From a virus (lineage: Duplodnaviria; Caudoviricetes), in IMG/VR virus record IMGVR_UViG_3300044641_005618: 64,000 nucleotides of DNA; one strand, 5' to 3'. The notes under the pieces are model-generated. The model was not told the origin of the DNA and did not search any database. It saw only the letters and a program-made list of their open reading frames with translations. The position numbers and the translations under genes were made by a program. Positions 1,269 through 63,272 of the stretch are shown here, piece after piece; positions within the stretch are counted from its first letter, which is position 1; each line of letters starts with the position of its first letter.

Positions 1269-1313
1269 ACTATACCGCTTTCTCTTCGAGAAAGAAAGGG
1301 GGGTAAACCGCCC
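1269..1313 (-). promoter_or_regulatory. Composite hairpin-spacer promoter copy
   Basis: minus: GGGCGGTTTACC..TTTCTC-GAA-GAGAAA GCGG TATAGT. Confidence 0.75.
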
Positions 1314-1323
1314 TGCCCTTATG

Positions 1324-1450
1324 CTACGGAGAAACGACCGATAAAACCTTGATAAGGGAGTGCCCGTCGATTTCAGGTTGATAGTTCTCACCAGTCTGCG
1401 GCAGCAGGAATCGCTTCTTCGATGGGGAGGTAAATTGTGTCGAATTTCAT
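1324..1450 (-). pseudogene. Small ORF, possibly with one extra base (ATT C CTG)
   Basis: MKFDTIYLPIEEAI in frame 0 would join LLPQTGENYQPEIDGHSLIKVLSVVSP* in +1 frame; span 127 = 3n+1. Confidence 0.3.
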
Positions 1451-1686
1451 GGGGCGGTCGGGTAAAATAAACCGAATAGATAAAGCACCGAAAGTAGCAC
1501 CACGAGGACAAACCCCAATGAGACTTGTATTTCAACTGGCGTAACCTCTTCGGGGGAACCCCGCTCTTTGTCCAGCTTACGAATGAGCTTCTCATTTGGG
1601 GTTAGCCTCAGCCCATCTTTCACCTCGACCCACCGAGACCCCTTCGGGTGACGGTGTTTTCGACTGAAGGGGTAGTTTCGTTGCAT
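1447..1686 (-). CDS. Hypothetical protein with C-terminal TM segment
   Basis: ORF track; hydrophobic C-terminus. Confidence 0.5.
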   Translation of the reverse strand: MQRNYPFSRKHRHPKGSRWVEVKDGLRLTPNEKLIRKLDKERGSPEEVTPVEIQVSLGFVLVVLLSVLYLFGLFYPTAP

Positions 1687-1687
1687 A

Positions 1688-2098
1688 CTAACCGCGAGCG
1701 ATCACTTCCCGAAGGAAAGCAAGACCGTCTTCAGTGGTGTCCGAGAAGTGGCTTTCGGCCTCTTCTCCTAACAGCCTGTTTCCTGCAATCCGAGGGTGGA
1801 CAGTGAAGCCCAGTTCTCCACACATAACTTGTGAGAAACCTCCGATGCAGTGAACCGTACCGCAGTTACTGGTGTTTATTCCCTCCCAGTAATTGGTGTA
1901 GTCCCCATTCAGGTGGTACGCAAACATATTGAAGTTATCCAAGTCACGCTCCACAATCCAGAGTGCAACGTGCCGTAAGTTCTCTCCTTGTTGTTCAGGG
2001 GAAAGCACAATGTCCCAACTTTCTGGAATGTGCGGGAGACTAGGGATGGTTAGTGAACTTGCCTGAGTGCTCGGACGTGTTTCGGTGGAGGTAGTCAT
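1688..2098 (-). CDS. Hypothetical protein, paralog of 2474-2932
   Basis: Shared LSPxQQxxNLxHVALWxVERDxxNFNM and CGTVHCIxGFSQVM motifs. Confidence 0.75.
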   Translation of the reverse strand: MTTSTETRPSTQASSLTIPSLPHIPESWDIVLSPEQQGENLRHVALWIVERDLDNFNMFAYHLNGDYTNYWEGINTSNCGTVHCIGGFSQVMCGELGFTVHPRIAGNRLLGEEAESHFSDTTEDGLAFLREVIARG

Positions 2099-2473
2099 TT
2101 TGTTTAGGGTTCGTTGTTTTTAAGTGAGCAGGGTCTCACGGGTCGTAGTTTACACCCGTAGTTTAACGTGGGTGGGTTGTTGCCCTGTAGCAATCACCGT
2201 CGTCCTGGAGACTGATGCCGCACAGAAGGTTGAAAAAACGCATTTTTTGCCTTGCGAAGGAAGCCGGTTTTCTCGGGAAAGTTGTCTCCTGGAGCAGGGA
2301 CCTCAGCCAGTGCTGCATCCACACGGCGGTCGAGATCGTCGAGTGTTGGCTCCCAATTCTCAAGTACTAGGTGGCCCGTCTGTGAATTGCACATTGACCG
2401 CAACACTGCAAGTGCAATTTGTTGCTTGCGGCACAAAGACCGCAGGTTTAGGATTTCGGTTTCCATTCTTGTT

Positions 2474-2932
2474 TCAAGCACTAGTACCAGGGGAATTACG
2501 TGAAATGACGTGCTGAAGGAAGGCGAGGCCATCTTCGTTGCTGTCGAAAAAGTGACATTGGGCTTCTACACCAAGCAAAAGTCGTCCAGCGGTCTCCGGG
2601 TGAAGCTCAAACCCCTTTTGACCGGCCATCACCTGGCTGAAACCAGCTATACAGTGGACAGTTCCGCATGTGCTGAGAATTTGTGGGAGTCCCTGACGGG
2701 TTATCCCGATTAAGCCACCCCAGGCGTCATGCCAGTGATCCATGTTAAAGTTGTGAGAATCGCGTTCGACCACCCACAAGGCCACATGTAGCAGGTTAGC
2801 CTCCTGCTGATCAGGGGAAAGCCGGTCGGCGAAGAGCCAAGTAACAGGAATGAAAGGTAAGGGGGGCAGTCCGAGGGGGGTGTCTAACGCGATTGCCTGG
2901 GCATGCCGGACCGCTTGTGCAGTGAGAGTCAT
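2474..2932 (-). CDS. Hypothetical protein, paralog of 1688-2098
   Basis: Same motifs; ATG 2932 (MTLTAQ) preferred. Confidence 0.75.
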   Translation of the reverse strand: MTLTAQAVRHAQAIALDTPLGLPPLPFIPVTWLFADRLSPDQQEANLLHVALWVVERDSHNFNMDHWHDAWGGLIGITRQGLPQILSTCGTVHCIAGFSQVMAGQKGFELHPETAGRLLLGVEAQCHFFDSNEDGLAFLQHVISRNSPGTSA

Positions 2933-3085
2933 TTTGTTTGGTAATGAGACGGGGGAGTCAGGCTCGGGTCTGGGGCCGATTGAGGACAAGAATAAACGAA
3001 ACCAAACCAAGCAACGTGAAGAAGATGCTGTGAAGTGCGGAAAGGTCGTTCAGGGGGAACATGGTTGCTCAAGTGGACTGAAGTA

Positions 3086-3130
3086 ACTATACCGCTTTCC
3101 TGTCGGAAAGGTAAGGGGGGTAAACCGCCC
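3086..3130 (-). promoter_or_regulatory. Composite hairpin-spacer promoter copy
   Basis: plus: actataccg ctttcc-tgtc-ggaaag gtaagggggg taaaccgccc. Confidence 0.75.
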
Positions 3131-3134
3131 CCTT

Positions 3135-3410
3135 TCAGAGTCTTACAGGAACAAGAGTGGCAGCCTCAGAGCGAGTGCGAGCTATCTCGTTGCAGTCGGC
3201 TTCACTCAGACCCGTCATGCTCTGCAGTTCGTGGTCTTGCACTCCATCCAAAACGGTCACGAGTGCGCGAGCAAAACGTTCGGCTTTCACCTCTGCTTCC
3301 CCTCGCTTCTCGTTCTCGTACAAGACACGGTTTTCAAGCGTTGTAAGCAAATCGGATGCGTTATCAAGGGGTCTTATAACTCTAAGAGTCACCGCGTTAG
3401 TGGAATCCAT
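3135..3410 (-). CDS. Hypothetical protein
   Basis: ATG 3410 follows promoter at 3437. Confidence 0.65.
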   Translation of the reverse strand: MDSTNAVTLRVIRPLDNASDLLTTLENRVLYENEKRGEAEVKAERFARALVTVLDGVQDHELQSMTGLSEADCNEIARTRSEAATLVPVRL

Positions 3411-3436
3411 TGTTTTTGGAGGAACACAACTCATTT

Positions 3437-3481
3437 AGTATACCGTTTCTGCCCCGCAGAGAAAAGGGGGGTAAACCGCCC
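3437..3481 (-). promoter_or_regulatory. Composite hairpin-spacer promoter copy
   Basis: plus: agtataccg tttctgc-ccc-gcaga gaaaagggggg taaaccgccc. Confidence 0.75.
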
Positions 3482-3524
3482 ATACTGGAGAGTTCACACA
3501 CGGTCAAGACCAACTCAAAGGAAA

Positions 3525-4688
3525 TCACACCAACTTAAAAAAGTCTTTTTTCGACAGTTGAACAATAACACCCTTCGAGACAGACTCAATGGTCAGGTTT
3601 TCGTCAGTAACCCCAACCCCGTCAACTTTTACAGAGCCTGCCTTTATTTTACGTCGAGCCTCGCTTGTGCTTTCTACCAAATTGAGTGTTTTTAGGATGG
3701 TAGCTAGACGGCAGGGAAAATCCACTCCCTTAGTCGAAACTTCCGGCACGTTAACTTCAATTGTCTGTGAGAAAACAAGGGCCTCGGAGTCTTTCAGTGC
3801 CTTCAGAGCTTTCTCCCTTCCATGGAAGGTGGAGACGACTTCTACGGCCATTCGCTTCTGTCTTTCTCGAGGATTTTCCGGAAACTGATCCAGGTTGCAG
3901 TCGGTGAGGAGTGTAATGTAATCGTTAACCAATTGGTCCGGAACCTTCTCAAGTTTAGAGAACATTTGAAGTGGGTGTTCGTCGAGTCCAATGGCATTGT
4001 TCAGACTTTTGCTCATTTTTTGCACTCCGTCGGTGCCCGGTAGAATTGGCATTAGCATACCAACTTGCTGGACCGGTGAGTCGAAATGTTTTTGAACCTC
4101 TCTACCCAAGCCAACATTGAATTTCTGGTCAGTGCCACCGAGCTCTACGTCCGACTCTACATGAAAACTGTCGTACCCTTGGAGCAAAGGGTACATAAAC
4201 TCGTGTAGCCTAATCGGAGTTTGTAACTCAATGCGGTGTGCAAAATCTTGCTTTGCAATCATTTGCTGTACAGTTGTTATGGACTGAAGTTTAACAATGT
4301 CTGACAAGTGTAGGCACTCTAAATGGCTAGAGTTGAGAACCAGCTCACATTTTTCCAGGTTTACGAAGCGTGATATTGCTGTAATGAAGCTGTCAATGTT
4401 GGAATCTACTTCTTCTTTTGAAAGTTGCTTTCTTACCGAGGACTTTCCCGTGGGGTCCCCTATTCTTGCAGTGAAGTCACCAATAATGACAACGGGAATG
4501 TGGCCCTGGTCCTGAAAAGTCCGTAGCTTACGAAGAAGTACAGAATGCCCCAGATGCAAAAAGTTTGAGGTCGGGTCGAACCCAAGTTTTATCCTCTTCT
4601 GGGTCGTGAAAAAAGTATCGTCTGCTATTGCGGGAAAAGTGTCAATTATTCCACGGGTTAGGCTTGAAGGAGGTTTAGATGTGAACAT
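3525..4688 (-). CDS. tyrS: Tyrosine--tRNA ligase
   Basis: GFDPTSNFLHLGH (HIGH), KMSKS, DVELGGTDQKFN, C-terminal S4 domain; promoter at 4708 places start at ATG 4688 rather than 4796. Confidence 0.95.
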   Translation of the reverse strand: MFTSKPPSSLTRGIIDTFPAIADDTFFTTQKRIKLGFDPTSNFLHLGHSVLLRKLRTFQDQGHIPVVIIGDFTARIGDPTGKSSVRKQLSKEEVDSNIDSFITAISRFVNLEKCELVLNSSHLECLHLSDIVKLQSITTVQQMIAKQDFAHRIELQTPIRLHEFMYPLLQGYDSFHVESDVELGGTDQKFNVGLGREVQKHFDSPVQQVGMLMPILPGTDGVQKMSKSLNNAIGLDEHPLQMFSKLEKVPDQLVNDYITLLTDCNLDQFPENPRERQKRMAVEVVSTFHGREKALKALKDSEALVFSQTIEVNVPEVSTKGVDFPCRLATILKTLNLVESTSEARRKIKAGSVKVDGVGVTDENLTIESVSKGVIVQLSKKDFFKLV

Positions 4689-4707
4689 AGGCTTGGTGAT
4701 TAAACTA

Positions 4708-4750
4708 ACTATACCGTTTCTGCAGAGCAGAAACAAGACGGAAAACAGAA
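4708..4750 (-). promoter_or_regulatory. Composite hairpin-spacer promoter copy (tyrS)
   Basis: minus TTGTTT-17 nt-TATAGT with TTTCTGC-TCT-GCAGAAA dyad. Confidence 0.8.
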
Positions 4751-4805
4751 CGTTTAGGGCGGTTTGCCCCCCTAAAACTTTGCACGACCCTAACAACTCG
4801 AAAGA

Positions 4806-5111
4806 TCACACATCCTGCGACTGGCTTTTCAGGGCAACCTCCAACTGCTGAAGTCGTAGCTCAATGCTTTGCAACCTGTCTTCCGTTTCCCTTTCCATTT
4901 TTATCCTGTGCTCACGGCGTTGAGCATGCTTAAGGTGAATCTCCTCCCGCAGTCTTGAGTTTTCTTTCTTAAGCCTTGCTGTTTGTTCCCTGTACTGGGC
5001 GGTCTCCTTTTCAATTATTGCTGTTTCCTCACGAATTCGAGCCGTTTCTTCTCTCGTATCTCTCGTCATTTGCTGTAGTCTCGAAATGTTGTCTTCCATC
5101 ACCCTGCTCAA
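4806..5111 (-). CDS. Coiled-coil hypothetical protein
   Basis: Heptad-like ETAxIxxE repeats. Confidence 0.65.
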   Translation of the reverse strand: MSRVMEDNISRLQQMTRDTREETARIREETAIIEKETAQYREQTARLKKENSRLREEIHLKHAQRREHRIKMERETEDRLQSIELRLQQLEVALKSQSQDV

Positions 5112-5374
5112 ACTTTTATTAGGGGGGTAGCCTTTCCCCCCCGTCTAGTGAAAGGTACATCAAGCGGTGCCGTGTGCGGGGCTCTCGTGGCACTAAGATA
5201 AACCCTGTGGTGCTTAAGACCGTTCACACAGTGAATCGTTGACTCCCCCGTTTTCCACCAATGTAGAGTGTCTTCAATCCACACGGATAAGCGAAAGGGT
5301 CGACTTCCGCCACGGGCACCGTCCTCCCATCCAAATCTTAATACCTTGTCAGTAATTGATCTTAGCTTGTTCAT
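5108..5374 (-). CDS. Hypothetical protein
   Basis: ORF track; 4-bp overlap. Confidence 0.55.
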   Translation of the reverse strand: MNKLRSITDKVLRFGWEDGARGGSRPFRLSVWIEDTLHWWKTGESTIHCVNGLKHHRVYLSATRAPHTAPLDVPFTRRGGKATPLIKV

Positions 5375-5488: not shown

Positions 5489-5844
5489 TTACGAGTTCCC
5501 CTTTAGACCTGATACGGAGTTCTCTCGAGGGTGGAATAGCGCAACCAGCACCCACAACATAACACTTTTAACCTCACCAGACACTACTTTCACAAACCAG
5601 AACTTTTGCCCAGGGGGATTCTCCGTAAAAGGATCCAAGAAGTACTCTTTGATTTCCGAGTACGGACGACTCTTTTTAGGTCCTCAGCGAGTTTCATGGT
5701 TGAGAAACAGGCGCAAGTTGTCCTTTGCTTGCTCGGTCGGAAGCAGATAACGAACTGGAGCTAGCACAGGATTCCCGGCACTCTCACTCTCAAGAGAGCG
5801 GAAGTCGTGGTGAGGACATCATAAAAAGGGTCACGGCAGGGCAT
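5489..5844 (-). pseudogene. Disrupted hypothetical gene (1-base deletion plus in-frame TGA at 5684-5686)
   Basis: MPCRDPFY then protein-like frame CPHHDFRSLE...NHETR*GPKKSRPYSEIKEYFLDPF...; span 356 = 3n+2. Confidence 0.4.
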
Positions 5845-6254: not shown

Positions 6255-6514
6255 GTTAAGCGAAAAGCGCAGCCCCAGCGATCACAAATATACTTAAGGC
6301 TTGACTCGATGCTTTCCAGACTCGTGTAGCCATAGGTCTCCTCGCCGCTCCTTCTGTCTGGGTCGTAAGCAAAGTGAAAAGCCCGGAGCGCCTGAATGGC
6401 TTTCCTATTCTTCTCAATTTTACGTACCTCTTCACCCAGGTCCACAGGGTACGAGAAGTCGAAAACTTCACGTCGGATGCGCGATTGGAGCCGCTTTTTA
6501 ACTTTCTTTTTCAT
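6191..6514 (-). CDS. Hypothetical protein
   Basis: ATG directly below promoter at 6522. Confidence 0.65.
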   Translation of the reverse strand: MKKKVKKRLQSRIRREVFDFSYPVDLGEEVRKIEKNRKAIQALRAFHFAYDPDRRSGEETYGYTSLESIESSLKYICDRWGCAFRLTWLLGVPSAVANLKSSPKLSK

Positions 6515-6521
6515 GGTCTAA

Positions 6522-6590
6522 GTTTAGCTCTTTTGCTCCACGAAGGCAAGGGGGGAAACCGTCTGCCCCGGCACGGTTAACCGTTTTCTG
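6522..6590 (-). promoter_or_regulatory. Composite promoter copy inside 3' end of upstream ORF
   Basis: minus GGTTAACC..GGTTTCCC..TTGCCT-17 nt-TAAACT. Confidence 0.65.
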
Positions 6591-8687: not shown

Positions 8688-9797
8688 TCAGGAAATTCCG
8701 AGCAAAACGTCGAGCTTTTTCGGGGTTAAACCTTCGAGCCACTCTGCAAAGGATCCGACTTTGCCGGATCGAATCGCAAAGCATGCTCCAGAAAGTTCTT
8801 TTGACTCGGCAAGTACGGCTTGAGCGAAATCCTTCTGGTTAAGATGGTTGTGAGCCCTCATGTTCTCGCTCACCGCACTCTCCATCACTTCGATGGAACG
8901 CAGGTGAACGTCAAAACCCCTACGATACTCGGGAAAGTGAAGCAGAAACTCTTCCAAGTCGTCGTTCAGGAAAAGCTCGGAGAAATCCGGTTCTCCGTTT
9001 CCTTTAACCCTGTGCAACTGACAGTAGACGTTGGACTTGTCTTTCTGGCGGTTTCCGTTTCCGTCGACAATAATTACGCCTTCAGCGGTACCACGAGAAG
9101 AGTCGTTTACAAACTGGGTTACAGCTTCATGTGAGCGCAGGTCGTAGGTCTGAGCGAGATTGAATCGGTTCTCAAAGTACTTGAGATCCTTTTCGTTCAG
9201 GTCATCTATTACGCTACGGACAGTTAAGAGAGGTAAAAGGGGAGTCTCGTAGTCTACAACAATTTTGTTGTCTTTGTGGCACAATTCATAGATATACACG
9301 AAATTAGGGTCCAGGTCCACCCGCTCGTAGCCAACTTCGTCAAACACGTGCCAAAACAACTCGGAGAAGGAGCGACCCGTGGTTCCTACTTCCGAGGAAC
9401 CAGCGACTGAACCGGAGGTTGAAACTACCCAATCCCCCTTATAGCTAAACAACTTGATCAGAGACCCGTCATACTTCTCAGCTACACGGGCAGTGGACCA
9501 ATCAATCTCAGCGGCATACCCCTCGCCAACGTTGAAAAAGCGATCGAAGGCGTACGCAACCAGCCGAAAGTACGGGGAGCCCGTACCATCGTCAACGAGT
9601 TCGACTACGGCACCACGGCAGGCACGAACGATCGGCAGTGCCTTGTCCGCCATTACACTGCCGTACTTCAAGTTGTAGAGAGCAGGGTAACGTTCGTCGC
9701 GAGCAACACGAATGTCGTGTTCAGCGAGTGCTTCAAAAGCGGTCTCGACACGGTAGTTTAACCAGTCGATTAGAAAGTGGCGCAGGTTTATTTCCAT
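8688..9797 (-). CDS. T4 Rnl1-like RNA ligase
   Basis: Motif I EKYDGSLI, AFDRFFN, YELCH..N.IV, EGVII. Confidence 0.85.
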   Translation of the reverse strand: MEINLRHFLIDWLNYRVETAFEALAEHDIRVARDERYPALYNLKYGSVMADKALPIVRACRGAVVELVDDGTGSPYFRLVAYAFDRFFNVGEGYAAEIDWSTARVAEKYDGSLIKLFSYKGDWVVSTSGSVAGSSEVGTTGRSFSELFWHVFDEVGYERVDLDPNFVYIYELCHKDNKIVVDYETPLLPLLTVRSVIDDLNEKDLKYFENRFNLAQTYDLRSHEAVTQFVNDSSRGTAEGVIIVDGNGNRQKDKSNVYCQLHRVKGNGEPDFSELFLNDDLEEFLLHFPEYRRGFDVHLRSIEVMESAVSENMRAHNHLNQKDFAQAVLAESKELSGACFAIRSGKVGSFAEWLEGLTPKKLDVLLGIS

Positions 9798-10132: not shown

Positions 10133-10162
10133 TAGTTTGTCCGATGGGGTGTCTATGAAGCA

Positions 10163-10205
10163 ATGATACCGTTTCTGCAGAGCAGAAACAATGGCGGGAA
10201 GCCGC
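10163..10205 (-). promoter_or_regulatory. Composite hairpin-spacer promoter copy
   Basis: plus: atgataccg tttctgc-aga-gcagaaa caatggcgggaagccg. Confidence 0.7.
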
Positions 10206-10207
10206 TC

Positions 10208-10852
10208 TTAGCGGTTTTGTTCCCCGTTGTCCCACCTCGGCTCGGATCTTCTTCTAGGAAAGTTAGTCCCGAGGTCTCCTTTTATCTCTCCGTTGACGAG
10301 TACAACAAGGTGGTCTGTGCCGTAATCGTCCCAGTAGTCGGAGAACTTCGTGTCTACTGACAGAGTAACCTTGTGCTTGTAAAGAACTTGGCCGAGATCC
10401 TTTCTAAACTCGTCCATGTCGAACTTTTCGCCAGGGGTGTACGCAGCGGTCTCAACTATTTCGTCTCGAATGAGATTGTCCCAGTCGACGCAGTTGAAAG
10501 GCAGTTTTGTTGAGGACAGGTCTTCAGGTGTGAAGGAGGTTCGGAGTCTGACTCTCCACCCTTTTGTCCAAGTACGATCATCACGGACTCTTACCAGAGT
10601 GTAGCAGTAGGAGGATGGAACGTTCGGGTCCGTTGCTTTTGGGTGCATCCAGATGTCGGACACAACGTAGAGACCGTCTTTTACTGGACTCTTCCGAAAG
10701 TGAAGGTAAGGAACTTCAGTTCCCCAGGTTCGACCGTCGGGAGAATTTTTAAGTATTTTTCCAGGAACAAACACACTGTCCCCTGGCTTCAGCAAAAGTT
10801 GTCCTGTAACTGATTCAGGGGGAGACTTCATGGGTTGGGGTGCTTTGGTCAC
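10208..10852 (-). CDS. Hypothetical protein
   Basis: ORF track; promoter at 10859. Confidence 0.65.
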   Translation of the reverse strand: MTKAPQPMKSPPESVTGQLLLKPGDSVFVPGKILKNSPDGRTWGTEVPYLHFRKSPVKDGLYVVSDIWMHPKATDPNVPSSYCYTLVRVRDDRTWTKGWRVRLRTSFTPEDLSSTKLPFNCVDWDNLIRDEIVETAAYTPGEKFDMDEFRKDLGQVLYKHKVTLSVDTKFSDYWDDYGTDHLVVLVNGEIKGDLGTNFPRRRSEPRWDNGEQNR

Positions 10853-10858
10853 GAACCA

Positions 10859-10903
10859 ATTATACCGTTTCTGCAGAGCAGAAACAAGGGTGGAAACCGC
10901 CCC
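10859..10903 (-). promoter_or_regulatory. Composite hairpin-spacer promoter copy
   Basis: plus: attataccg tttctgc-aga-gcagaaa caagggtggaaaccgccc. Confidence 0.8.
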
Positions 10904-11761: not shown

Positions 11762-11786
11762 TGGTTCGAGTATCTCTACTAAAGTA

Positions 11787-11830
11787 ATCATACCGTCTTT
11801 GCCGAGCAAAGACAAGGGTGGAAACCGTCC
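11787..11830 (-). promoter_or_regulatory. Composite promoter copy with compensated hairpin
   Basis: plus: atcataccg tctttgc-cga-gcaaaga caagggtggaaaccgtcc. Confidence 0.8.
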
Positions 11831-12940: not shown

Positions 12941-12968
12941 TTGAAGAGTCTTTGGGGGTCACAAGTTA

Positions 12969-13031
12969 AGTATACCGCTTTCCTTACGGAAAGGCAAGGG
13001 GGGTAAACCGCCCCAGAGCAAACGGTTAACC
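12969..13031 (-). promoter_or_regulatory. Composite promoter copy with two upstream boxes
   Basis: ctttcc-ttac-ggaaag dyad; GTAAACC 13003 and GTTAACC 13025, 22 bp apart. Confidence 0.8.
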
Positions 13032-14208: not shown

Positions 14209-14235
14209 TTTTGTATGGGTCTTGGCTACTTGGTT

Positions 14236-14298
14236 ATTTTACCGCTTTTTCGGGGCAGAAACAAGCCGGGAAACCCCCCCGAAGCAAGCGGTTAACCG
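14236..14298 (-). promoter_or_regulatory. Composite promoter copy with two upstream boxes
   Basis: plus: attttaccgctttttcggggcagaaacaagccgggaaacc..gcggttaaccg. Confidence 0.7.
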
Positions 14299-18383: not shown

Positions 18384-18704
18384 CTAGACCGTATACCCAC
18401 TTCCGCTGCACTCGTACGGTAAGTCCTGCAGTACTCGATAGAAAAGCTCACGATATGCCTCGAAGGCGATCCTATTCATCCACAACACGCCGGATACCTG
18501 TATCCCGAGAGACTCTGCAAATTCTTTCGCAGTTGAACGAAGGTAGCAGTCTCCAATCGCCCCGTCTCTCTCAAACTGCTCGTAGTCTTCGATTAGTTGT
18601 TGGAGGTTTTGCTTGGTCAGTGCGTTAATTCTGTCTCTAAGGGGTGTCATTGGGTTTGCTCCGGCAAGGTAGTTTCTGAAAGCTTTCAGCGGGGTGTTTT
18701 CCAT
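18384..18704 (-). CDS. Hypothetical protein
   Basis: ATG below promoter at 18711. Confidence 0.65.
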   Translation of the reverse strand: MENTPLKAFRNYLAGANPMTPLRDRINALTKQNLQQLIEDYEQFERDGAIGDCYLRSTAKEFAESLGIQVSGVLWMNRIAFEAYRELFYRVLQDLPYECSGSGYTV

Positions 18705-18710
18705 AAACTA

Positions 18711-18773
18711 AGTATACCGTTTCTTCTCCGTAGAAACAAGCCGGGAAACCGCCCTTGGCGGTACGGTTAACCG
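18711..18773 (-). promoter_or_regulatory. Composite promoter copy with two upstream boxes
   Basis: GGAAACC 18744 and GTTAACC 18766; likely drives the NAD operon. Confidence 0.8.
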
Positions 18774-23609: not shown

Positions 23610-24491
23610 TTAAGTAAGGGTATTATACGTTATTTCAGAGTAGAAACAAGGGGGGGAAACCGCCCCAAACGAAAGGTCGTACAAAGTGCTTGCTATGAGC
23701 AAAAGTCTTTCACTGTCGTGCAACCCTGAAATCCACCGCTTTGGTATAGCCTTATACCCGTAGTAAGCACCCGCTAGCTGCCCCGTAATCGCAGCAACCG
23801 TGTCTGAGTCGTCCCCATAGTTCACAGCCTGCAGGATGGCCTCTTTAAAGGACGAAGTTGACCCAAAGTGGTAGAGAGCAGCGTCTAAGGACTTCGGTGC
23901 GTACCCGGAATTTTCAATTCCCTCCGGCGAGACTTCAGGTTTCTCCCCCGTACCATTCAAGTATCGGTGCAGCAAACGACCGAGATCTTTGCATAGGTCG
24001 GATGCCAAGTGGCCATGGGTTGTTGAGGATGACGCGTCACAAGCTGCTACAGCGTCCCCCTCACTCGATTTGTGGTAAACAATAGAAACGGGGGACAAAC
24101 GCATCAAAGACCCGTTTCCTTTCGAATTCTCCGGATAGAGACTCAAAGACCCCTCAACGAGAAAAGTCTCAATTGCACGGAGTGTTCCATTGCCGATGTC
24201 AAAACAGACTCCTGTTGAGCTGTTCCTTCCGTACTCGTACCAGTTGGAGTACCGACGCATTTGGTCTCCAAGATTGATCTGCCCATTGCAATGAATAAAA
24301 GACTCGGCAAGGCAAACAGCCTGCGATGTGTCGTCCGTCCAGTACCCTGAAGGCAGATTAAAGGGTCCTCCTTCTCGGTAGCCTGTGACTGGCTCGAATG
24401 TCCCTGGGGCTGAAAACTCCACTGGCGCACCCATCGCGTCACCAATTGCAAGGCCAATAAAGGCTCCGAGGCATTTGTCAAAAGTTGTCAT
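23610..24491 (-). CDS. ADP-ribosylglycohydrolase (DraG/ARH family)
   Basis: GLAIGDAMGAP, WTDDT, GNGSLMR, GDDSDTVAAITG. Confidence 0.92.
   Translation of the reverse strand: MTTFDKCLGAFIGLAIGDAMGAPVEFSAPGTFEPVTGYREGGPFNLPSGYWTDDTSQAVCLAESFIHCNGQINLGDQMRRYSNWYEYGRNSSTGVCFDIGNGTLRAIETFLVEGSLSLYPENSKGNGSLMRLSPVSIVYHKSSEGDAVAACDASSSTTHGHLASDLCKDLGRLLHRYLNGTGEKPEVSPEGIENSGYAPKSLDAALYHFGSTSSFKEAILQAVNYGDDSDTVAAITGQLAGAYYGYKAIPKRWISGLHDSERLLLIASTLYDLSFGAVSPPCFYSEITYNTLT
23621..23666 (-). promoter_or_regulatory. Degenerate composite promoter copy
   Basis: plus: attatacg..agaaacaaggggggg aaaccgcccc. Confidence 0.6.
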
Positions 24492-24727
24492 TTTTCCAAG
24501 TTGGTTTAAGAGGAGTGAACGGACCTGAGCTATTTGCGGGGAGCAAGGTAGCACTAAGAAACAGTGGCCTTACACTCTACACAAGTGCGATGCTCCCGCT
24601 CCCTTGAGTCGTAGGCTCCTAGACCTGGTGTAGACTGACCGGGAAGTACGTTGCCCCACGTGTAGGTTGGGGACCCGCACCAGGGGCAGGCGGTTGAGTC
24701 TAAAATCAACGAGGATAGCATTCGATG

Positions 24728-26052: not shown

Positions 26053-26109
26053 AGTGTTTCAGCGTGGGTTGGAGTGTAGGGTGCTGTTTTGGCCAGGAAA
26101 GTTGGCGGT

Positions 26110-26430: not shown

Positions 26431-26444
26431 GTAGGACTGTCCGC

Positions 26445-27989: not shown

Positions 27990-28042
27990 TGGGTCTCCTG
28001 AGTTAGGGGGCTAAGTGTCTGAGCACCGCTGCTCATGTAAAT

Positions 28043-28105
28043 ACTATACCGTTTCTTCGGAGCAGAAACAAGACGGGAAACCGCCCAGGATCAAACGGTT
28101 AACCG
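28043..28105 (-). promoter_or_regulatory. Composite promoter copy with two upstream boxes
   Basis: plus: actataccgtttcttcggagcagaaacaagacgggaaacc..acggttaaccg. Confidence 0.8.
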
Positions 28106-31239: not shown

Positions 31240-31280
31240 TTTACTTAGGTGTGGTAGAGGGGGTTATTCAGGCTGTAAAT

Positions 31281-31345
31281 ACTATAACGCTTTCTCTTCG
31301 AGAAACCAAGCCGGGAAACCGTCCCGAGCAAACGGCTAACCGCCC
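31281..31345 (-). promoter_or_regulatory. Composite promoter copy (tsf)
   Basis: tttctc-ttc-gagaaa dyad; gggaaacc and ggctaacc boxes. Confidence 0.8.
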
Positions 31346-34923: not shown

Positions 34924-35523
34924 TCAGCCAGGTCTTGGATGGGAAGTTGTGTTAGCGACATGAGGTCTCTCTTCTGTCTCCTTTATTATAGCGGCTTTTC
35001 CTCCGCAAAACGAGGAGGGGGAAACCGCCCCCCCCCTTCTAGTCTTAGGGGGCCAGTGTGCCAGGGCTTCTTCTACTATATGAGCCACTCGGCCAAGGTA
35101 GTCGTCTGAGCCCCAAGATGATCGGTCTTCTATCCAAGTCAGGATTTCTGAGCGTGTGGGTTTGTTACTTTGCACTTCAAATACCTCCTGATCAGTTTTC
35201 TTATCCCCGGAGTAAACACCCTTCACACCACCTTCTTCTTTCGGGTCGCAGTAGAACTCAGGGTGGTCCATGTAATAACCTAACGTGTTACCGGCTTCGC
35301 CATCGTCAGGCCAGTAAGAACGATTCCAGTGACCTTCGGAATCTAGAAGGCCGGCAGAGATCAGAAATTGCCTGGCCCAGCCCGGCTCCTTCAGCTTCTC
35401 GTCCACCCAGGCCAGATTCTCAGACGTCAAACGGGACTCCGGACCCTGGCCTGAGGGAGTGTTAGTGGGGTCTTCTGAAACAAGGGTGCTCAATGCAAGA
35501 GAAGCCTCCTTCAGGACCCCCAT
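34924..35523 (-). CDS. Hypothetical protein
   Basis: ORF track; C-terminus runs through promoter element. Confidence 0.6.
   Translation of the reverse strand: MGVLKEASLALSTLVSEDPTNTPSGQGPESRLTSENLAWVDEKLKEPGWARQFLISAGLLDSEGHWNRSYWPDDGEAGNTLGYYMDHPEFYCDPKEEGGVKGVYSGDKKTDQEVFEVQSNKPTRSEILTWIEDRSSWGSDDYLGRVAHIVEEALAHWPPKTRRGGAVSPSSFCGGKAAIIKETEERPHVANTTSHPRPG
34985..35036 (-). promoter_or_regulatory. Composite promoter copy
   Basis: plus: attatagcgg..gggggaaaccgccc. Confidence 0.65.
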
Positions 35524-36819: not shown

Positions 36820-36864
36820 GCGTAGCTCTTGTGGTGTGATGGGGGAATACTAGTTCTTTTGATA

Positions 36865-36930
36865 ACTATAGCGTGTAACTCATCAGAAAACAAGCCGGGA
36901 AACCGTCCCAGGGCAAACGGTTAACCGCCC
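36865..36930 (-). promoter_or_regulatory. Composite promoter copy with two upstream boxes
   Basis: plus: actatagcg..aaacaagccgggaaacc..acggttaaccgccc. Confidence 0.75.
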
Positions 36931-41652: not shown

Positions 41653-41678
41653 AGGACTTCAGGGTTTGCACTAAAGTA

Positions 41679-41740
41679 AGTATACCGTTTCTGCGCCGCA
41701 GAAACAAGCCGGGAAACCGCCCCGGAGCAACCGGTTACCC
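41679..41740 (-). promoter_or_regulatory. Composite promoter copy with two upstream boxes
   Basis: tttctgc-gcc-gcagaaa dyad; boxes at 41712 and 41734. Confidence 0.85.
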
Positions 41741-43104: not shown

Positions 43105-43497
43105 TCAGGGAAAGGGTACAAACTCGCAAACGAGGGAAAGACCAAAGTTCTCTCTTTGAATTGCAAGTGGAGATTGAAGCATCACATTCGACTCAACGGG
43201 GCGAACTCCAGGAAGCATCGAAATTGTCATGTGAGGGTTCTTGTTCAAGCAAACACTCCGGATCCCGCTCGGAAGTTCAACTCGTAAGGCATGAATGCGG
43301 TCGTTGAAACAATTTTCAGTGGCACGAACTGTGAAAGTTCTCCCTAAGATCCCGTCTGGAATCTCGTTCTCCACCACACCAAACTGCAAAGTAACGTGAA
43401 AGTGCTCAGCAGCTTGGCTGAAGATTGGGTGAACTGGGGAGTTCTGGTCCGGTTTGGACAACCAGAGAATCCCACGGCGAGGGGCGGTGTTTTCCAT
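43105..43497 (-). CDS. 2H phosphoesterase (tRNA-ligase CPD / Acb1-like fold)
   Basis: Two HxT motifs: HFHVTLQF and NPHMTIS. Confidence 0.75.
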   Translation of the reverse strand: MENTAPRRGILWLSKPDQNSPVHPIFSQAAEHFHVTLQFGVVENEIPDGILGRTFTVRATENCFNDRIHALRVELPSGIRSVCLNKNPHMTISMLPGVRPVESNVMLQSPLAIQRENFGLSLVCEFVPFP

Positions 43498-43503
43498 ACT
43501 TGT

Positions 43504-43567
43504 ACTATACCGCCTTTTGCTCTGTGAGGGAAAGCGGGGAAACCGTCCGAGTTAGGGCGGCTACCCC
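43504..43567 (-). promoter_or_regulatory. Composite promoter copy
   Basis: plus: actataccg..ggggaaaccgtcc..ggcggctacccc. Confidence 0.7.
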
Positions 43568-45039: not shown

Positions 45040-45064
45040 TGTTTCGAGTGGCTCGACTGAATTA

Positions 45065-45130
45065 ATCATACCGTTTCTTCGGTGCAGAAACAAGCGGGGA
45101 AACCGTCCCAAATGAAACGGTTTACCGCCC
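45065..45130 (-). promoter_or_regulatory. Composite promoter copy with two upstream boxes
   Basis: Boxes at 45098 and 45120. Confidence 0.8.
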
Positions 45131-45640: not shown

Positions 45641-45937
45641 TTATGCACCGGGGTACTCTTCAAGGTAGCCCTTGTACCAGTCCTGGGCAGCCCCTGAAAT
45701 AACCCCTTCAACCATGTTCTTCAAAATCCAGAGCTGGCGATCAGGAAACGCTGTCATTTTCAGGTGAGTGTATCTGAGTGCGCCCCAGGCCTGCAAGAAC
45801 TTCAGGTCTTGCTCCGGGAACAAAATCAGGAGCAAAGAGTCTACTAAGGGGCGTTTCTCGAAACCGCGAGTCATACTCGCAAGAGTTTCTTCGATGGCGG
45901 TGATCTGGGCGGGGCTGAGGCTGAGGTTGTTTTCCAT
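45641..45937 (-). CDS. Hypothetical protein
   Basis: ATG below promoter at 45944. Confidence 0.65.
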   Translation of the reverse strand: MENNLSLSPAQITAIEETLASMTRGFEKRPLVDSLLLILFPEQDLKFLQAWGALRYTHLKMTAFPDRQLWILKNMVEGVISGAAQDWYKGYLEEYPGA

Positions 45938-45943
45938 GAACTA

Positions 45944-46010
45944 ACTATACCGTTTCTACCCCCGCAGAGACAAGGGGTAAACCGCCCCCGAGAAGGAGGG
46001 TAAACCGCCC
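45944..46010 (-). promoter_or_regulatory. Composite promoter copy with two upstream boxes
   Basis: GTAAACCGCCC at 45977 and 46000. Confidence 0.8.
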
Positions 46011-50831: not shown

Positions 50832-50880
50832 ACAGGGCTTCAGTGGTTTTTATGAGTTGGGTGGTGCTTTCCCTGGAGCA

Positions 50881-50947
50881 ACTATAGCGTTTTCCTTCTG
50901 GAAAACAAACGGGGAAACCGCCCCAGGGCAAGGGGTGGAAACCGCCC
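50881..50947 (-). promoter_or_regulatory. Composite promoter copy with two upstream boxes
   Basis: ttttcc-ttct-ggaaaa dyad; boxes at 50913 and 50937. Confidence 0.8.
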
Positions 50948-52211: not shown

Positions 52212-52232
52212 GGGCGGGGCTTCAATGAAGTA

Positions 52233-52298
52233 ACTATACCGTTTCTGCGCTGCAGAAACAAGGGTGGAAACCGTCGGTTTAGGTTCGGTAAACCGCCC
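52233..52298 (-). promoter_or_regulatory. Composite promoter copy (reference example)
   Basis: -10 TATAGT 52238-52233; -35 TTGTTT 52261-52256; 17-bp spacer with dyad; boxes at 52266 and 52288. Confidence 0.85.
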
Positions 52299-54014: not shown

Positions 54015-54256
54015 GTGCTTCGGGGTTGTTTCCCCCTGGTTCAACCTTAGCGGGTTTACGGGGGAGGTAACCCGTCTAAACCTCAAGGCTCCGTGAGCAA
54101 TTGCTCTATCTGAGCAAGGATTGACTCCGTGTAACCGGCGATGAAGCCGTAGGCTTGTTTGGTTCCCATCTGACCGGACAGTGCCTTGGACCGGGCTTCC
54201 TTCTCCGACTGAATGAGTCGGAGGATTTGTTGCTTGGTGGTTTCTTCCATGCACTT

Positions 54257-54321
54257 ACTATACCGTTTCTGCGGGGTAGAAACAAGCCGGGGAACCGGCC
54301 AAGGCTGGGCGGTTAACCGCC
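54257..54321 (-). promoter_or_regulatory. Composite promoter copy with two upstream boxes
   Basis: plus: actataccgtttctgcggggtagaaacaag..ggggaacc..gcggttaaccgcc. Confidence 0.8.
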
Positions 54322-55507: not shown

Positions 55508-55530
55508 GGTGCTTTGGTTCCAACCTAACT

Positions 55531-55596
55531 ACTATAGCGTTTCTGTCCCGCAGAAACAAGGGTGGAAACCGTCGGTGCAAGGGCGGTAAACCGCCC
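55531..55596 (-). promoter_or_regulatory. Composite promoter copy with two upstream boxes
   Basis: Boxes at 55564 and 55586. Confidence 0.85.
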
Positions 55597-58771: not shown

Positions 58772-58966
58772 TCAGGTTAATACGGTGTCCCACACCGCCC
58801 CCGTAACTGCATCGACAATGTAAATGTCCTCACCAGTTGAGCGGGAAATGTCGCGAGCTGCGTTTATTGCCTCGCCGTAGCTTGGGTAGCTTTCACCCCC
58901 AACAGAATCCCCGGTCACGGCTTTCTTGAGATAAAAGGTCATTAGTTTGTTCCGGCTACAGTGCAA
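58772..58966 (-). CDS. Hypothetical protein
   Basis: ORF track; real start likely ATG near 58942. Confidence 0.5.
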   Translation of the reverse strand: MHCSRNKLMTFYLKKAVTGDSVGGESYPSYGEAINAARDISRSTGEDIYIVDAVTGAVWDTVLT

Positions 58967-59010
58967 TCATAGCGCCTTTCCTCGGAAAGGGAAAGGGCGG
59001 TTTACCGCCC
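58966..59010 (-). promoter_or_regulatory. Composite promoter copy
   Basis: ctttcc-tc-ggaaag dyad; gggcggtttaccgccc. Confidence 0.7.
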
Positions 59011-59775: not shown

Positions 59776-59849
59776 TGGCGGACCGGGGAATTGAACCCCT
59801 GTTCCTCTGGGTTATGGGCCCAGCGTGACTACCGTGACACTCGTCCGCG
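59776..59849 (-). tRNA. Initiator-type tRNA-fMet(CAT)
   Basis: 1:72 mismatch (C.C), three G-C pairs in anticodon stem, loop CCCATAA. Confidence 0.8.
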
Positions 59850-60045: not shown

Positions 60046-60164
60046 GGAGCAAGGTTGGACTTGAACCAACGGCTTGCTTTGCCCTCCAGCGTTACGGTCC
60101 TTTACCGAGGCTTTCCTTAGAAAGCCTGAGGAGGTTGCCGCTCTACCAACTGAGCTACTTGCTC
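60046..60164 (-). ncRNA. tRNA-framed RNA A (119 nt, 69-nt multi-hairpin in place of anticodon arm)
   Basis: Acceptor GAGCAAG/CTTGCTC, canonical D-arm, T-arm GTTGG-TTCAAGT-CCAAC. Confidence 0.75.
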
Positions 60165-60877: not shown

Positions 60878-61005
60878 CCGTATTAAATTTTCAAGTTGCC
60901 TTTTGCTTTCGCAAAAGCGGGGAGGAGGTGAGGGCGAAGCCCTCTCTCAACCACCCTTTTAGTATAGGGTTTCTGCGGGGCAGAAACAAGGACGGGAAAC
61001 CGCCG
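60878..61005 (-). promoter_or_regulatory. tRNA operon promoter plus boxA-like leader
   Basis: TTGTTT-17-TATACT with dyad; GCAACTTGAAAA at 60899-60888. Confidence 0.75.
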
Positions 61006-61232: not shown

Positions 61233-61263
61233 TTTGATTTGGAGGACCAACGGTAACAATTTA

Positions 61264-61326
61264 AGTTTAGCCGGTTTCACCGTGAAGCGAAAGGGCGGGA
61301 AACCGCCCCGGTTCGTTCGGTTAACC
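61264..61326 (-). promoter_or_regulatory. Composite promoter copy with two upstream boxes
   Basis: minus TTTCGC-17 nt-TAAACT; TTCAC-G-GTGAA dyad. Confidence 0.7.
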
Positions 61327-61737: not shown

Positions 61738-61798
61738 AGAAAACGAGCAGTTACGTATGATGCTCAGCACAGGTTTCCCAGCAAAAGGGCTGAGAGGA

Positions 61799-61870: not shown

Positions 61871-61981
61871 AACCGGAGCAGTCACGCTCCGTACCTAGTT
61901 TCCTATAATTGCCTACTCGTGTCATCGCGGAAGTTGACGAAACTTCTAGAACTTTCGGCTCAAGTGGTGTTAGGCACCAGA

Positions 61982-62136
61982 CTAAAGTGGAGAGACTCGA
62001 ACTCTCATAGCAGGATTACGTCTAGCTGTCACCTGCACGGTGGTTGCAACCATGAGCTAGGAGGTTGCTATTTGTTCACAACCCCATCCGTATTGGCTGA
62101 ATCCACACCGCCGTATACCAATTCCGGCACACTTCG
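61982..62136 (-). ncRNA. tRNA-framed RNA C (155 nt, about 104-nt multi-helix insert)
   Basis: Leu-type D-arm CCG-GAATTGGTATA-CGG, T-arm GAGAG-TTCGAGT-CTCTC, acceptor CGAAGTG/CACTTTA. Confidence 0.7.
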
Positions 62137-62202
62137 TTCTTAACGTATGAAGAGAATCTGAAATAGGTTCTCTTCCCGTTTAGTATTCTCCTGAAGGAGA
62201 AA

Positions 62203-62283
62203 CTGGAGTGGAAGGATTCGAACCTTCATTGTCTTTCGACACTGGTTAACAGCCAGCTGCATTACCAATTATGCTACACCCCA
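62203..62283 (-). tRNA. tRNA-Asn(GTT) with long variable arm
   Basis: U1-A72, G73; loop CTGTTAA; extra GTC-GAAA-GAC hairpin. Confidence 0.85.
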
Positions 62284-62434
62284 TTGCACCCTGCGTTACG
62301 GCAGGGGATAGTAAGAAGCACTCTGGGGTCGCGAGCGTCCCCGTGTGAGTACGAATCGTTACTGAATCCGGTTATTACTGTCCCTTAAGTTGCAAACCGG
62401 CAACCTCGCTTAAGGAATTTTCGCGTTAGCGAAA

Positions 62435-62507
62435 TGGAGACAATCGGAATTGAACCGATCACAAGTCGCTTGCGAAGCGTCCTCGCCACCTTGGAACATG
62501 TGCCCCC
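62435..62507 (-). tRNA. tRNA-Ala(CGC)
   Basis: G3.U70; loop TTCGCAA; atypical D-arm. Confidence 0.8.
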
Positions 62508-62613
62508 GTTTTCCTATCAGGAAACAAAAGTTAGCCGATAGGGGCAGAGCGTCTCACCTCTGCGAGGAACGTTTCAGTTCGTTTTCCCCCTTAGGGAAGT
62601 TGCCCGAAGGCAA

Positions 62614-62686
62614 TGGGTTTGGTGGGATTCGAACCCACAACATACCGGGTAAGAGCCGGTTACTCTGCCAATTGAGCTACAAACCC
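62614..62686 (-). tRNA. tRNA-Lys(CTT)
   Basis: Loop CTCTTAC. Confidence 0.92.
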
Positions 62687-62749
62687 GAACCCCAAGTTTA
62701 GAAAGCACCATCGCAGGTACTTGGGCAACCTTTTCCGCTAACGCGGAAA

Positions 62750-62822
62750 TGGGAACGGTCGGAGTCGGACCGACGGCCTATCGGTTATCAGCCGATTGCT
62801 CTTACCGCTGAGCTACGCTCCC
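62750..62822 (-). tRNA. tRNA-Ile(GAT)
   Basis: Loop CTGATAA. Confidence 0.9.
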
Positions 62823-62941
62823 TTGGTATTAAGTTTTCGAGGTGCCGTCCGCAAGAGCGGGAGCGAGGAGGAAGCCGAGCTTCCCAACCACCCCTTTAGT
62901 ATAGGGTTTTTCACCGGGGAAGTAAAGCGGGGAAACCGCCC
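62823..62941 (-). promoter_or_regulatory. tRNA operon promoter plus boxA-like leader
   Basis: TATACT -10; GGAAGC-TCG-GCTTCC hairpin; GCACCTCGAAAA. Confidence 0.7.
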
Positions 62942-63047
62942 TCTTGAACCCCCAGTCGCAAGCTAGCTTAGCTCACCCTCTTAAAAAGTAAACCTTTTAA
63001 GGCTGTCGAATACTTCTGCAATCTCGGTGAAGCCCAAGTAGCGCAGG

Positions 63048-63203
63048 CTAATAACCAGCTTTCTCTAAAGCTTCGCGTACCATGTCGATTTCGTCGTTCC
63101 AGGCGTACATTCCATCTAAGCTGTCTAGCCTTGCGGTCAAGGCATCAAAAGCCAGCATAATCTCTTTGCTGTCACGTTCGCTAGCTTTGATTTCGTTGGA
63201 CAT
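63048..63203 (-). CDS. Small hypothetical protein
   Basis: ATG 63203 follows promoter at 63229. Confidence 0.55.
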   Translation of the reverse strand: MSNEIKASERDSKEIMLAFDALTARLDSLDGMYAWNDEIDMVREALEKAGY

Positions 63204-63228
63204 GGCGTTGAGGGGTTTGACTGTTGTG

Positions 63229-63272
63229 ACTATAGCGGTTTTCACCGGGGAAGTAAAGCGGGGAAACCGCCC
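63229..63272 (-). promoter_or_regulatory. Composite promoter copy, near-identical to 62900-62941
   Basis: ttttcaccggggaagtaaagcggggaaaccgccc shared. Confidence 0.75.

Follow-up and report, generated by a model that had tools for sequence, protein, structure and literature searches.

Locus and cassette copies

The stretch analysed here (hereafter the window) comprises 64,000 nucleotides of DNA from a virus of the Caudoviricetes (IMG/VR record IMGVR_UViG_3300044641_005618) with a GC content of 50%. All of its substantial genes lie on the minus strand, and 33 tRNA genes and a permuted tmRNA are encoded within its 64 kb. Dispersed between these genes is a family of cassettes, each combining a promoter core (-35 and -10 elements), a 17-bp spacer that in about half of the copies holds an inverted repeat, and one or two boxes upstream. 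The cassettes are probably early promoters read by the host RNA polymerase, of the kind known from T4-type phages as promoter-early stem-loops (PeSLs), and act in addition as recombination junctions.

A relative, G002 (277,244-bp record, estimated 98% complete), was found by a pattern scan of viral contigs and was used whole as the genome-wide proxy for the window phage; it shares about 92% identity with the window across 52 kb of alignment. Several shorter contigs (85-96% identity) are members of one species complex with the window phage. Many metagenomes and more than 20 metatranscriptomes from lakes contain the phage. Searches of phage collections gave no near relative, and in two pattern scans of viral contigs the matches belonged to this species complex (85-100% identity), with the 6.4-kb contig L079 as the sole exception; a pattern scan of genome contigs for cassettes gave no match.

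Copies were counted in three ways. A 16-mer taken from the core has 14 minus-strand occurrences in the window at three mismatches or fewer, against 0.47 expected, and a profile built from the copies gave about 30 minus-strand sites; the same profile search gave no convincing copy on the plus strand of the window. Anchoring on a strict -10 hexamer gave 29 copies in the window and 83 in G002. An earlier reading of the window from its letters (the original prediction) had described about 33 dispersed copies, all on the minus strand; dispersal and strand were confirmed, and the count was corrected to 29 by the strict anchor. The cassettes of the window are as follows, the number after TATAGT or its variant being the position of the hexamer.

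1262..1313 (-): cassette; TATAGT 1274-1269; stem CTTTCTC-gaa-GAGAAAG; proximal box only; ATG 1243
3079..3130 (-): cassette; TATAGT 3091; stem CTTTCC-gaca-GGAAAG; proximal box only
3430..3481 (-): cassette; TATACT 3442; 5-bp stem; flanks the tyrS module on its downstream side
3466..4710 (-): tyrS module (TyrRS, ATG 4688) between two cassettes; absent from G002
4701..4768 (-): cassette; TATAGT 4713; 8-bp stem GTTTCTGC-tct-GCAGAAAC; ahead of tyrS
6514..6582 (-): cassette; TAAACT 6526; no stem; both boxes; leaderless ATG 6514
10156..10207 (-): cassette; TATCAT 10168; 8-bp stem
10852..10902 (-): cassette; TATAAT 10864; 8-bp stem; G002 ortholog with another perfect stem, GTTTTGC/GCAAAAC
11780..11830 (-): cassette; TATGAT 11792; stem GTCTTTGC-tcg-GCAAAGAC; right arm uncompensated in the G002 ortholog
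12962..13031 (-): cassette; TATACT 12974; stem CTTTCC-gtaa-GGAAAG; both boxes
14229..14297 (-): cassette; TAAAAT 14241; no stem; both boxes
18704..18772 (-): cassette; TATACT 18716; imperfect stem; both boxes; leaderless ATG 18704
23615..23665 (-): cassette; TATAAT 23627; no stem
28036..28104 (-): cassette; TATAGT 28048; stem with one breaking mismatch; leaderless ATG 28036
31274..31341 (-): cassette; TATAGT 31286; stem TTTCTC-gaa-GAGAAA; both boxes
34978..35030 (-): degenerate cassette; TATAAT 34990; no stem
36858..36926 (-): cassette; TATAGT 36870; no stem (0 kcal/mol); both boxes
41672..41739 (-): cassette; TATACT 41684; 8-bp stem; both boxes
43497..43548 (-): cassette; TATAGT 43509; no stem; leaderless ATG 43497
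45058..45126 (-): cassette; TATGAT 45070; broken stem; both boxes
45937..46006 (-): cassette; TATAGT 45949; broken stem; leaderless ATG 45937
50874..50943 (-): cassette; TATAGT 50886; stem GTTTTCC-agaa-GGAAAAC; both boxes
52226..52294 (-): cassette; TATAGT 52238; 8-bp stem; both boxes; sequence past the -10 replaced in G002
54250..54318 (-): cassette; TATAGT 54262; broken stem; leaderless ATG 54250
55524..55592 (-): cassette; TATAGT 55536; 7-bp stem, 5-nt loop; both boxes
58959..59010 (-): cassette; TATGAT 58971; stem CCTTTC-cgag-GAAAGG; box GGGCGG-taaa-CCGCCC followed by a T-tract (terminator-like)
60954..61005 (-): cassette; TATACT 60966; 8-bp stem; followed by the AAAAGGGTGGTTG leader and tRNA-Lys
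61257..61326 (-): cassette; TAAACT 61269; 4-bp stem; both boxes
62891..62941 (-): cassette; TATACT 62903; no stem; followed by the AAAGGGGTGGTTG leader and tRNA-Ile
63222..63272 (-): cassette; TATAGT 63234; weak stem

In G002 the cassettes are always co-oriented with the genes (plus strand at 4-44 kb, minus strand at 49-143.5 kb, plus strand again at 143.9-170.5 kb), and nearly all lie within the non-structural region at 0-171 kb. Only two stand beyond 171 kb, at 252 kb (before a sigma gene) and at 268 kb. With positions numbered from a predicted transcription start 7 nt after the hexamer, the stop codon of the upstream gene has a median position of -74.5, so that the cassette fills the intergenic gap. 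Of the downstream genes named in the original prediction, tyrS (ATG 4688), the NAD-salvage genes (cassette 18716, which heads PRPP-synthetase-like and NAPRTase genes) and tRNA genes (60966, 62903) were confirmed to stand behind cassettes. Two sets of open reading frames (ORFs) downstream of cassettes, both restricted to cassette-driven ORFs, contained 9/10 and 2/10 members without a Pfam family.

Where a cassette heads a tRNA cluster, the two are separated by a common leader, AAA(A/G)GGGTGGTTG..., with a GC hairpin, which runs for about 75-85 nt up to the first tRNA (window 60954-60880 and 62891-62825 on the minus strand; G002 40567, 43920, 138798 and 141539). It may be a leader that undergoes processing, or else a small RNA. 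Contigs assembled from RNA runs join distant cassettes of the window (52241 to 41705, 45962/54278).

Promoter core and predicted transcription start

Alignment on the hexamer is gap-free from about -50 to +10. The core reads CTTGyyT (-36 to -30), a 17-bp spacer and TATAGT (-12 to -7); the sigma-70-like geometry TTGTTT-17 bp-TATAGT described earlier for 52233-52298 is read directly from the sequence. Among the 83 copies in G002, conservation in the -10 hexamer was 81 for T-12, 83 for A-11, 76 for T-10, 78 for A-9 and 83 for T-7; just upstream, G-14 was kept in 81 and C-15 in 70, and in the -35 region C-36 in 76, T-35 in 73, T-34 in 79 and G-33 in 57. A purine occupies the predicted +1 in 80 copies, and the loop columns of the spacer (-25 to -23) carry essentially no information. 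The -35 TTGnnn, the spacer of 17±1 bp and the -10 TAnnnT of a primary sigma-70 promoter are thus all present in the sequence, around a start that is predicted.

The position of the start was deduced from the start codons. An ATG stands exactly 6 nt past the hexamer in 21/112 copies (15/83 in G002 and 6/29 in the window), whereas each offset from 7 to 19 nt is represented by one copy at most, and a second cluster follows at 22-33 nt. Three of these codons (18704, 43497 and 45937) are ORF starts, i.e. the first start codon following a stop. A start 7 nt past TATAGT would account for the sharp 6-nt spacing and is in keeping with A-11 and T-7, which are invariant, and with a purine at +1. This would imply mRNAs that are leaderless for about one gene in five and carry short leaders, mostly of about 13-27 nt, for the rest.

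Predicted leaderless genes often begin with ATGGAAAAC (MEN[T/N]) or ATGGAAGA (window 18704, 43497, 45937 and 54250; G002 23815, 24258, 52203, 61456 and 123281). The gene start may move together with the cassette, or else leaderless initiation may favour this context.

The genome of G002 was searched for a polymerase or factor of its own. Domains of beta and beta' were absent, the same searches being positive in 14/14 control genomes. No ORF exceeds 1590 aa, and none therefore has the size of the N4 virion polymerase (about 3500 aa); structural or replication families account for five of the nine largest, and the other four are without any match. The T7-type polymerase family (PF00940) gave no match in G002, in a search run without a positive control. 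Two divergent SigF/FliA-like sigma genes were found in the late region (252.2 and 258.7 kb), the first behind a degenerate cassette. GGGTAAA motifs are concentrated on the plus strand at 160-277 kb, where cassettes are absent. The search proposed in the original prediction for a sigma factor, an RNA polymerase or an activator thus yielded the two sigma genes, and neither a phage RNA polymerase nor a candidate box-binding protein was detected. In the simplest scheme, which we infer from these sequences, the host polymerase with its primary sigma would read the cassettes and the phage sigma factors would read late genes.

Boxes upstream of the core

A proximal GGTTWMCC box (one mismatch at most) abuts the -35 element in 77/83 copies in G002 and 28/29 in the window, and a distal box is present in 43/83 and 15/29, respectively. 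The two are 22 bp apart in 29/43 two-box copies in G002 and in 11/15 in the window (range 20-24 bp). Their centres fall at -42.5 and -64.5, in agreement with the two boxes, mostly 22 bp apart and centred near -43 and -65, of the original prediction. Conserved positions of the proximal box are G-50, G-49, C-47, G-46, G-45, T-44, T-43, T-42, M-41, C-40 and C-39. Long forms of the box are nearly exclusive to cassettes, at 26/26 occurrences for CGGTTAACCG and 49/57 for GCGGTTTMCC. A literature search for the box sequence returned primer sequences only.

Two uses of the boxes are compatible with these data, and both could hold: a contact for a protein or the polymerase, of which the phased activator of the original prediction would be one form, or equally a terminator-like RNA hairpin. 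Since each box is close to a palindrome, the distal box pairs through its right half with the left half of the proximal one. In RNA predicted for the two-box cassettes, the last helix ends at -42 to -36, just before CUUGUUUCU, in 40/43 cases (median -12 kcal/mol). A simple terminator scan (hairpin plus T-tract) flags several cassettes, and a terminator at the boxes would be well placed with respect to the upstream stop codons.

Contact with a protein is the basis of a different account of the whole family, in which the cassettes would act as middle promoters and depend on a phage factor: the boxes would bind an activator made by the phage or delivered with the virion, working as lambda cI does at -42 or as a class II activator does, or a phage sigma would read the cassettes. 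The box is conserved even at T-44 and T-43, which would lie in the loop of a hairpin and are among its most conserved bases (71-76/83). It is nearly confined to cassettes, with its centre at -42.5 and the second copy two helical turns up, and the distant contig L079 retains both boxes at the same 22-bp spacing. The -35 and -10 elements, on the other hand, already belong to the primary-sigma type; the phage sigma genes are closest in kind to group 3, and a cassette precedes one of them; and the two boxes also pair as the stable RNA hairpin ending at a T-tract. No candidate binding protein was identified, and the literature search did not find the box. Dependence on a phage factor is accordingly held to be doubtful.

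Inverted repeat in the spacer

The stems quoted in the original prediction are present: GTTTCTGC/GCAGAAAC, GTCTTTGC/GCAAAGAC (11792), CTTTCC/GGAAAG (3091, 12974), CTTTCTC/GAGAAAG (1274) and TTTCTC/GAGAAA (31286). A perfect stem of at least 5 bp occurs in 15/29 copies in the window and in 38/83 in G002 (about 46%), and 36/83 copies in G002 (43%) have a stem of 3 bp or less. Among the 38 stems of at least 5 bp in G002, the centre lies exactly 12 nt before the hexamer (-24) in 24 and within 0.5 nt of this position in nine more. Loops are 3-5 nt long. About 8-10 distinct perfect stems were distinguished: GTTTCTGC, CTTTCC, TTTTCC, CTTTCTC, GTTTTCC, GTTTTGC, GTTTTCTC, TTGTTTTC, GTCTTTGC and TTTGC.

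Pairing was evaluated on the 83-row alignment of the G002 copies. Paired cells amounted to 73.7%, against 62.5% after shuffling (0 of 500 shuffles gave as much as was observed) and 45-54% when the register was slid by 1-3 columns. When arms were exchanged between copies, with identical arms collapsed and every copy with a consensus arm removed, native arms formed stems of at least 5 bp in 33% of cases and chimeric arms in 18% (p=0.003); for stems of at least 6 bp the values were 22% and 7%. Two-sided changes are seen at -27/-21 (G:C 30, C:G 19, T:A 10) and at -29/-19 (T:A 39, C:G 26). The earlier statement that the dyad keeps pairing while its sequence changes therefore holds against shuffled, slid and chimeric controls. 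Counts of wobble pairs versus C:A mismatches in the dyad were left unused, being confounded by arm composition.

Other observations show how loosely pairing is kept. Unpaired columns share as much mutual information as paired ones, a sign of subfamily structure. Each arm is by itself a conserved promoter element, and the AAAC(A/C)CGC class keeps its right arm without a complement. Strain comparisons gave 47 non-redundant orthologous pairs, 30 of them with differences in the arms; among these 30, a stem is present in both alleles in six, in only one in ten (often through a single change) and in neither in 14. Neither the spectrum of -10 hexamers nor the leaderless share differs between copies that have a stem and copies that lack one. 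As single-stranded DNA the stems reach -4.5 to -7.3 kcal/mol, and some cassettes 0. The pairing is real and weakly maintained, and it is not what defines the promoter.

The original prediction had gone further and proposed a promoter read as a structure rather than as a sequence, the spacer dyad extruding as a DNA hairpin or cruciform that is recognised by an N4-like polymerase or acts as a supercoil-sensing switch. The fixed position of the stem, the number of different stem sequences that pair above the shuffled and slid controls, and the stability of the single-stranded hairpins, some with loops of the CGAAG type, would suit such a mechanism. The copies themselves speak against it, as all carry CTTG, G-14 and TAnnnT with the column frequencies given above; about half of them have no usable hairpin, including the 43% with 3 bp or less, and keep the same -10, -35 and box. 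Single changes between close strains destroy the stem in 10/30 arm-differing pairs, and the loop is unconserved. An N4 hairpin is centred at -11 and requires bases at -11, -10 and -8 (PMC4496689), whereas the dyad is centred at -24, and neither an N4-size nor a T7-type polymerase was detected in G002. The spacing of the leaderless ATG, moreover, suits a sigma-70 start site. A promoter read as a structure is considered very unlikely.

A second possibility is that the dyad is an operator, i.e. an inverted repeat bound by a dimeric phage or host regulator such as an early shut-off repressor, variant stems being tolerated or specific to a class. The symmetric conserved pairs T-30/A-18, C-26/G-22 and G-33/C-15 suit two half-sites, a protein bound in the spacer would block the polymerase, and a freely varying loop suits a central spacer. 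A single protein specificity does not, however, predict the changes on both sides at -27/-21 and -29/-19; the register also moves by 0.5 nt between stem classes, and many copies lack symmetry. We regard an operator as unlikely.

Pairing might also be without function, an accidental repeat between two promoter elements under separate selection (AGAAAC at -20 to -15 and the T-rich end of the -35) that is continually corrected by quasi-palindrome template switching and gene conversion. The arms are indeed conserved in unpaired copies, e.g. in the AAACACGC class, and mutual information, as noted, is as high between unpaired columns. At window 11792 the cassette differs from its ortholog by two simultaneous changes in the right arm that produce a perfect complement, whole spacers have been exchanged between orthologous sites, and the constraint on pairing is weak. 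The advantage of native over chimeric arms after de-duplication stands against this account, as does contig L079 (IMGVR_UViG_3300010885_051957; 6.4 kb, 44% GC, no other nucleotide similarity). Its two cassettes (5100-5177 and 5646-5723 on the minus strand) have boxes 22 bp apart; one holds a perfect 8-bp stem of other sequence in the same place, GTTTTTTC-aac-GAAAAAAC, and a leaderless ATG, and the other a 5-bp stem shifted against the -10. Absence of function is a rather improbable explanation of the pairing.

Recombination junctions

The clearest junction concerns tyrS. In the window a segment of 1.24 kb (3466-4710) that carries this gene lies between the cassettes at 4713 and 3442, and G002 has a single cassette in its place. 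The upstream half of that cassette (G002_78602) matches the window copy at 4713 nearly exactly from the distal box through CTTGTTTCTGC, and from the loop GGG onward it is a nearly exact match to the window copy at 3442. It is a chimeric cassette that replaces tyrS.

At 52238, the upstream parts of the window and G002 agree but for a single loop base; one position of the -10 also differs, and past it the two sequences share no relation. Some orthologous sites have wholly different spacers between flanks of 97-99.6% identity. The ends of insertions and deletions of at least 40 bp fall within 30 nt of a cassette in 11/66 cases, against 4.5 expected (p=0.006; null model, whole window). With about 85 nearly identical cassettes flanking single genes, recombination between them would insert, delete and replace genes.

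Probable host and further genes

The permuted, two-piece tmRNA gene (26065-26448, minus strand) matches Rfam RF04321 with 68 bits, and ARAGORN predicts the tag ANNIVKFERIAVAV*, which resembles cyanobacterial tags. The clusters nearest to the TyrRS of the window are cyanobacterial. From these two sequences, the host of this freshwater phage of about 277 kb is likely a cyanobacterium. A search of genomes with the TyrRS for the host gave a spurious sole match (27%), which was rejected. A pentapeptide-repeat protein and a Pol-gamma-like DNA polymerase are also encoded.

Cassette-driven genes in the window include those of a T4-type RNA ligase (8688-9797), an ADP-ribosylglycohydrolase (23610-24554) and an RlaP-like nucleotidyltransferase (28645-29787), all on the minus strand; this combination suggests functions in RNA repair or counter-defence. 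Rfam gave three tRNA matches on the minus strand that were not called by ARAGORN (60046-60164, 47980-48036 and 59776-59849), one of 119 nt with a large insert and two weak (31-32 bits). In G002, a ribonucleotide reductase large subunit with an intein (HNH motif) and fused to a glutaredoxin domain is encoded at 255794-258763 (L026:15794-18763).

Proposed function of the cassettes

We propose that the cassettes serve as early, non-structural promoters in the form of portable units of about 70 bases in intergenic gaps, ahead of about 85 genes. The host RNA polymerase with its primary sigma would read CTTGyyT, the 17-bp spacer with G-14, and TATAGT, and would start at the purine 7 nt on. The conserved GGCGGTTTMCC box abutting the -35, with its second copy 22 bp up in half of the cassettes, may be contacted by a protein or the polymerase; alternatively, as a read-through RNA hairpin followed by CUUGUUUCU, it may damp transcription that comes in from the gene upstream. 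Built from the T-rich end of the -35 together with an A-rich element at -20 to -15, the spacer's inverted repeat would be the equivalent of the PeSL stem-loop, its pairing weakly kept and probably dispensable for promoter identity. Recombination from cassette to cassette would then insert, delete and replace the genes between them.

Several results weigh against parts of this proposal. The upstream hairpin of single-box cassettes is weak (median about -7 kcal/mol), and chimera tests of the box hairpins gave no support for covariation (p=0.9 for two boxes, p=0.99 for single boxes), the proximal box hairpin on its own being marginal (p about 0.03-0.07); since both arms are conserved, the chimera test decides neither way for the boxes. 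Pairing in the spacer is above chance, and to call the dyad accessory may understate a real function. Metatranscriptome contigs give no transcript starts, as assembled contigs break or mis-join at cassettes, and early timing is deduced from gene content only. The null model of the indel-end test was the whole window rather than intergenic DNA alone, and the assignment of a cyanobacterial host depends on the resemblance of the tmRNA tag and on the nearest TyrRS clusters.

A spacer hairpin that does function as a DNA or RNA structure, either as a cruciform or hairpin making about 40 early promoters respond jointly to supercoiling or as the site at which a structure-specific phage protein switches them off or recombines them, together with boxes binding a novel activator at -42.5 and -64.5, seems quite unlikely. 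If true, it would amount to a structure-plus-sequence promoter code in a jumbo cyanophage that depends on the host polymerase.

Comparison with known systems

Activators that act close to the -35 offer one comparison for the boxes: lambda cI acts at PRM near -42, and class II sites for CRP, FNR and NtcA are centred at -41.5. The boxes resemble these in being nearly palindromic, in abutting the -35 with a centre at -42.5 and in having a second copy two helical turns up; they differ in that their sequence matches no described site found and can also be read as the arms of a terminator-like hairpin. Promoters of the MerR type share with the cassettes a dyad within the spacer, which is typically 19-20 bp long in MerR-type promoters and 17 bp here.

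Phage N4 has three hairpin promoters, centred at -11, in which specific bases at -11, -10, -8 and +1 are required, and their use needs an injected virion polymerase of 3500 aa, gyrase and SSB (PMC4496689). Common to both are promoter DNA that holds a short stem (5-8 bp) closed by a loop of about 3 nt, and stem bases some of which may vary if pairing is kept. In the cassettes, however, a complete sigma-70-type promoter surrounds the dyad, whose centre is at -24, the loop is unconserved, half of the copies have no stem, and no such polymerase gene was detected (the largest ORF in G002 being 1590 aa).

N4, MerR and CRP were the known systems named in the original prediction, which missed the PeSLs, whose stem-loop lies between -35 and -10 (PMC2839356). 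PeSLs were described in the T4-type phages RB49/phi1, PST/T4 and nt-1/KVP40 as dispersed cassettes in which a sigma-70-like early promoter is combined with a stem-loop, the latter most often between -35 and -10; they flank ORFans and mediate the shuffling of modules, and one crossover has been mapped to the loop (PMC2839356, PMC4122927). The cassettes correspond in a sigma-70-like consensus repeated across intergenic regions (29 copies in the window, 83 in G002), in a stem-loop within the promoter (dyad of at least 5 bp in 46%) along with a GC-rich hairpin upstream of the -35 in most copies, in dozens of intergenic sites, some of them adjoining genes without a Pfam family, and in insertion, deletion and replacement junctions within cassettes, sometimes in the stem-loop itself (tyrS; the indel ends at p=0.006; the swapped spacers). 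At the level of sequence, every testable attribute of a PeSL thus appears in the cassette family.

The differences concern form and lineage. The spacer stem is T-rich/A-rich here and polyG/polyC in PeSLs, and one or two GC-rich GGCGGTTWMCC boxes stand upstream in place of an AT-rich tract. No Shine-Dalgarno element is included, and one gene in five looks leaderless. The cassettes extend over about 60% of the genome, as opposed to discrete hyperplastic regions in PeSL phages. The replication and virion genes seen, for a Pol-gamma-like polymerase and a Mu-like protease, are not T4-like; a Gp23 match was not found, in a search whose positive control was silent. The cassettes are a known phage design, that of the PeSLs, in a new lineage and a new form.

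Implications

The cassettes provide a ready map of the probable early regulon, with about 85 promoters, of an abundant and uncultured lake phage, and they predict widespread leaderless translation. As a practical caution, cassette repeats break and mis-join assemblies. The gain or loss of tyrS between two cassettes is a concrete case of a phage acquiring host-like translation genes. The PeSL principle, in which portable promoter-hairpin cassettes both express and shuffle accessory genes, is extended beyond T4-type phages to an apparently unrelated jumbo phage, probably of cyanobacteria, and this suggests that the design is general.

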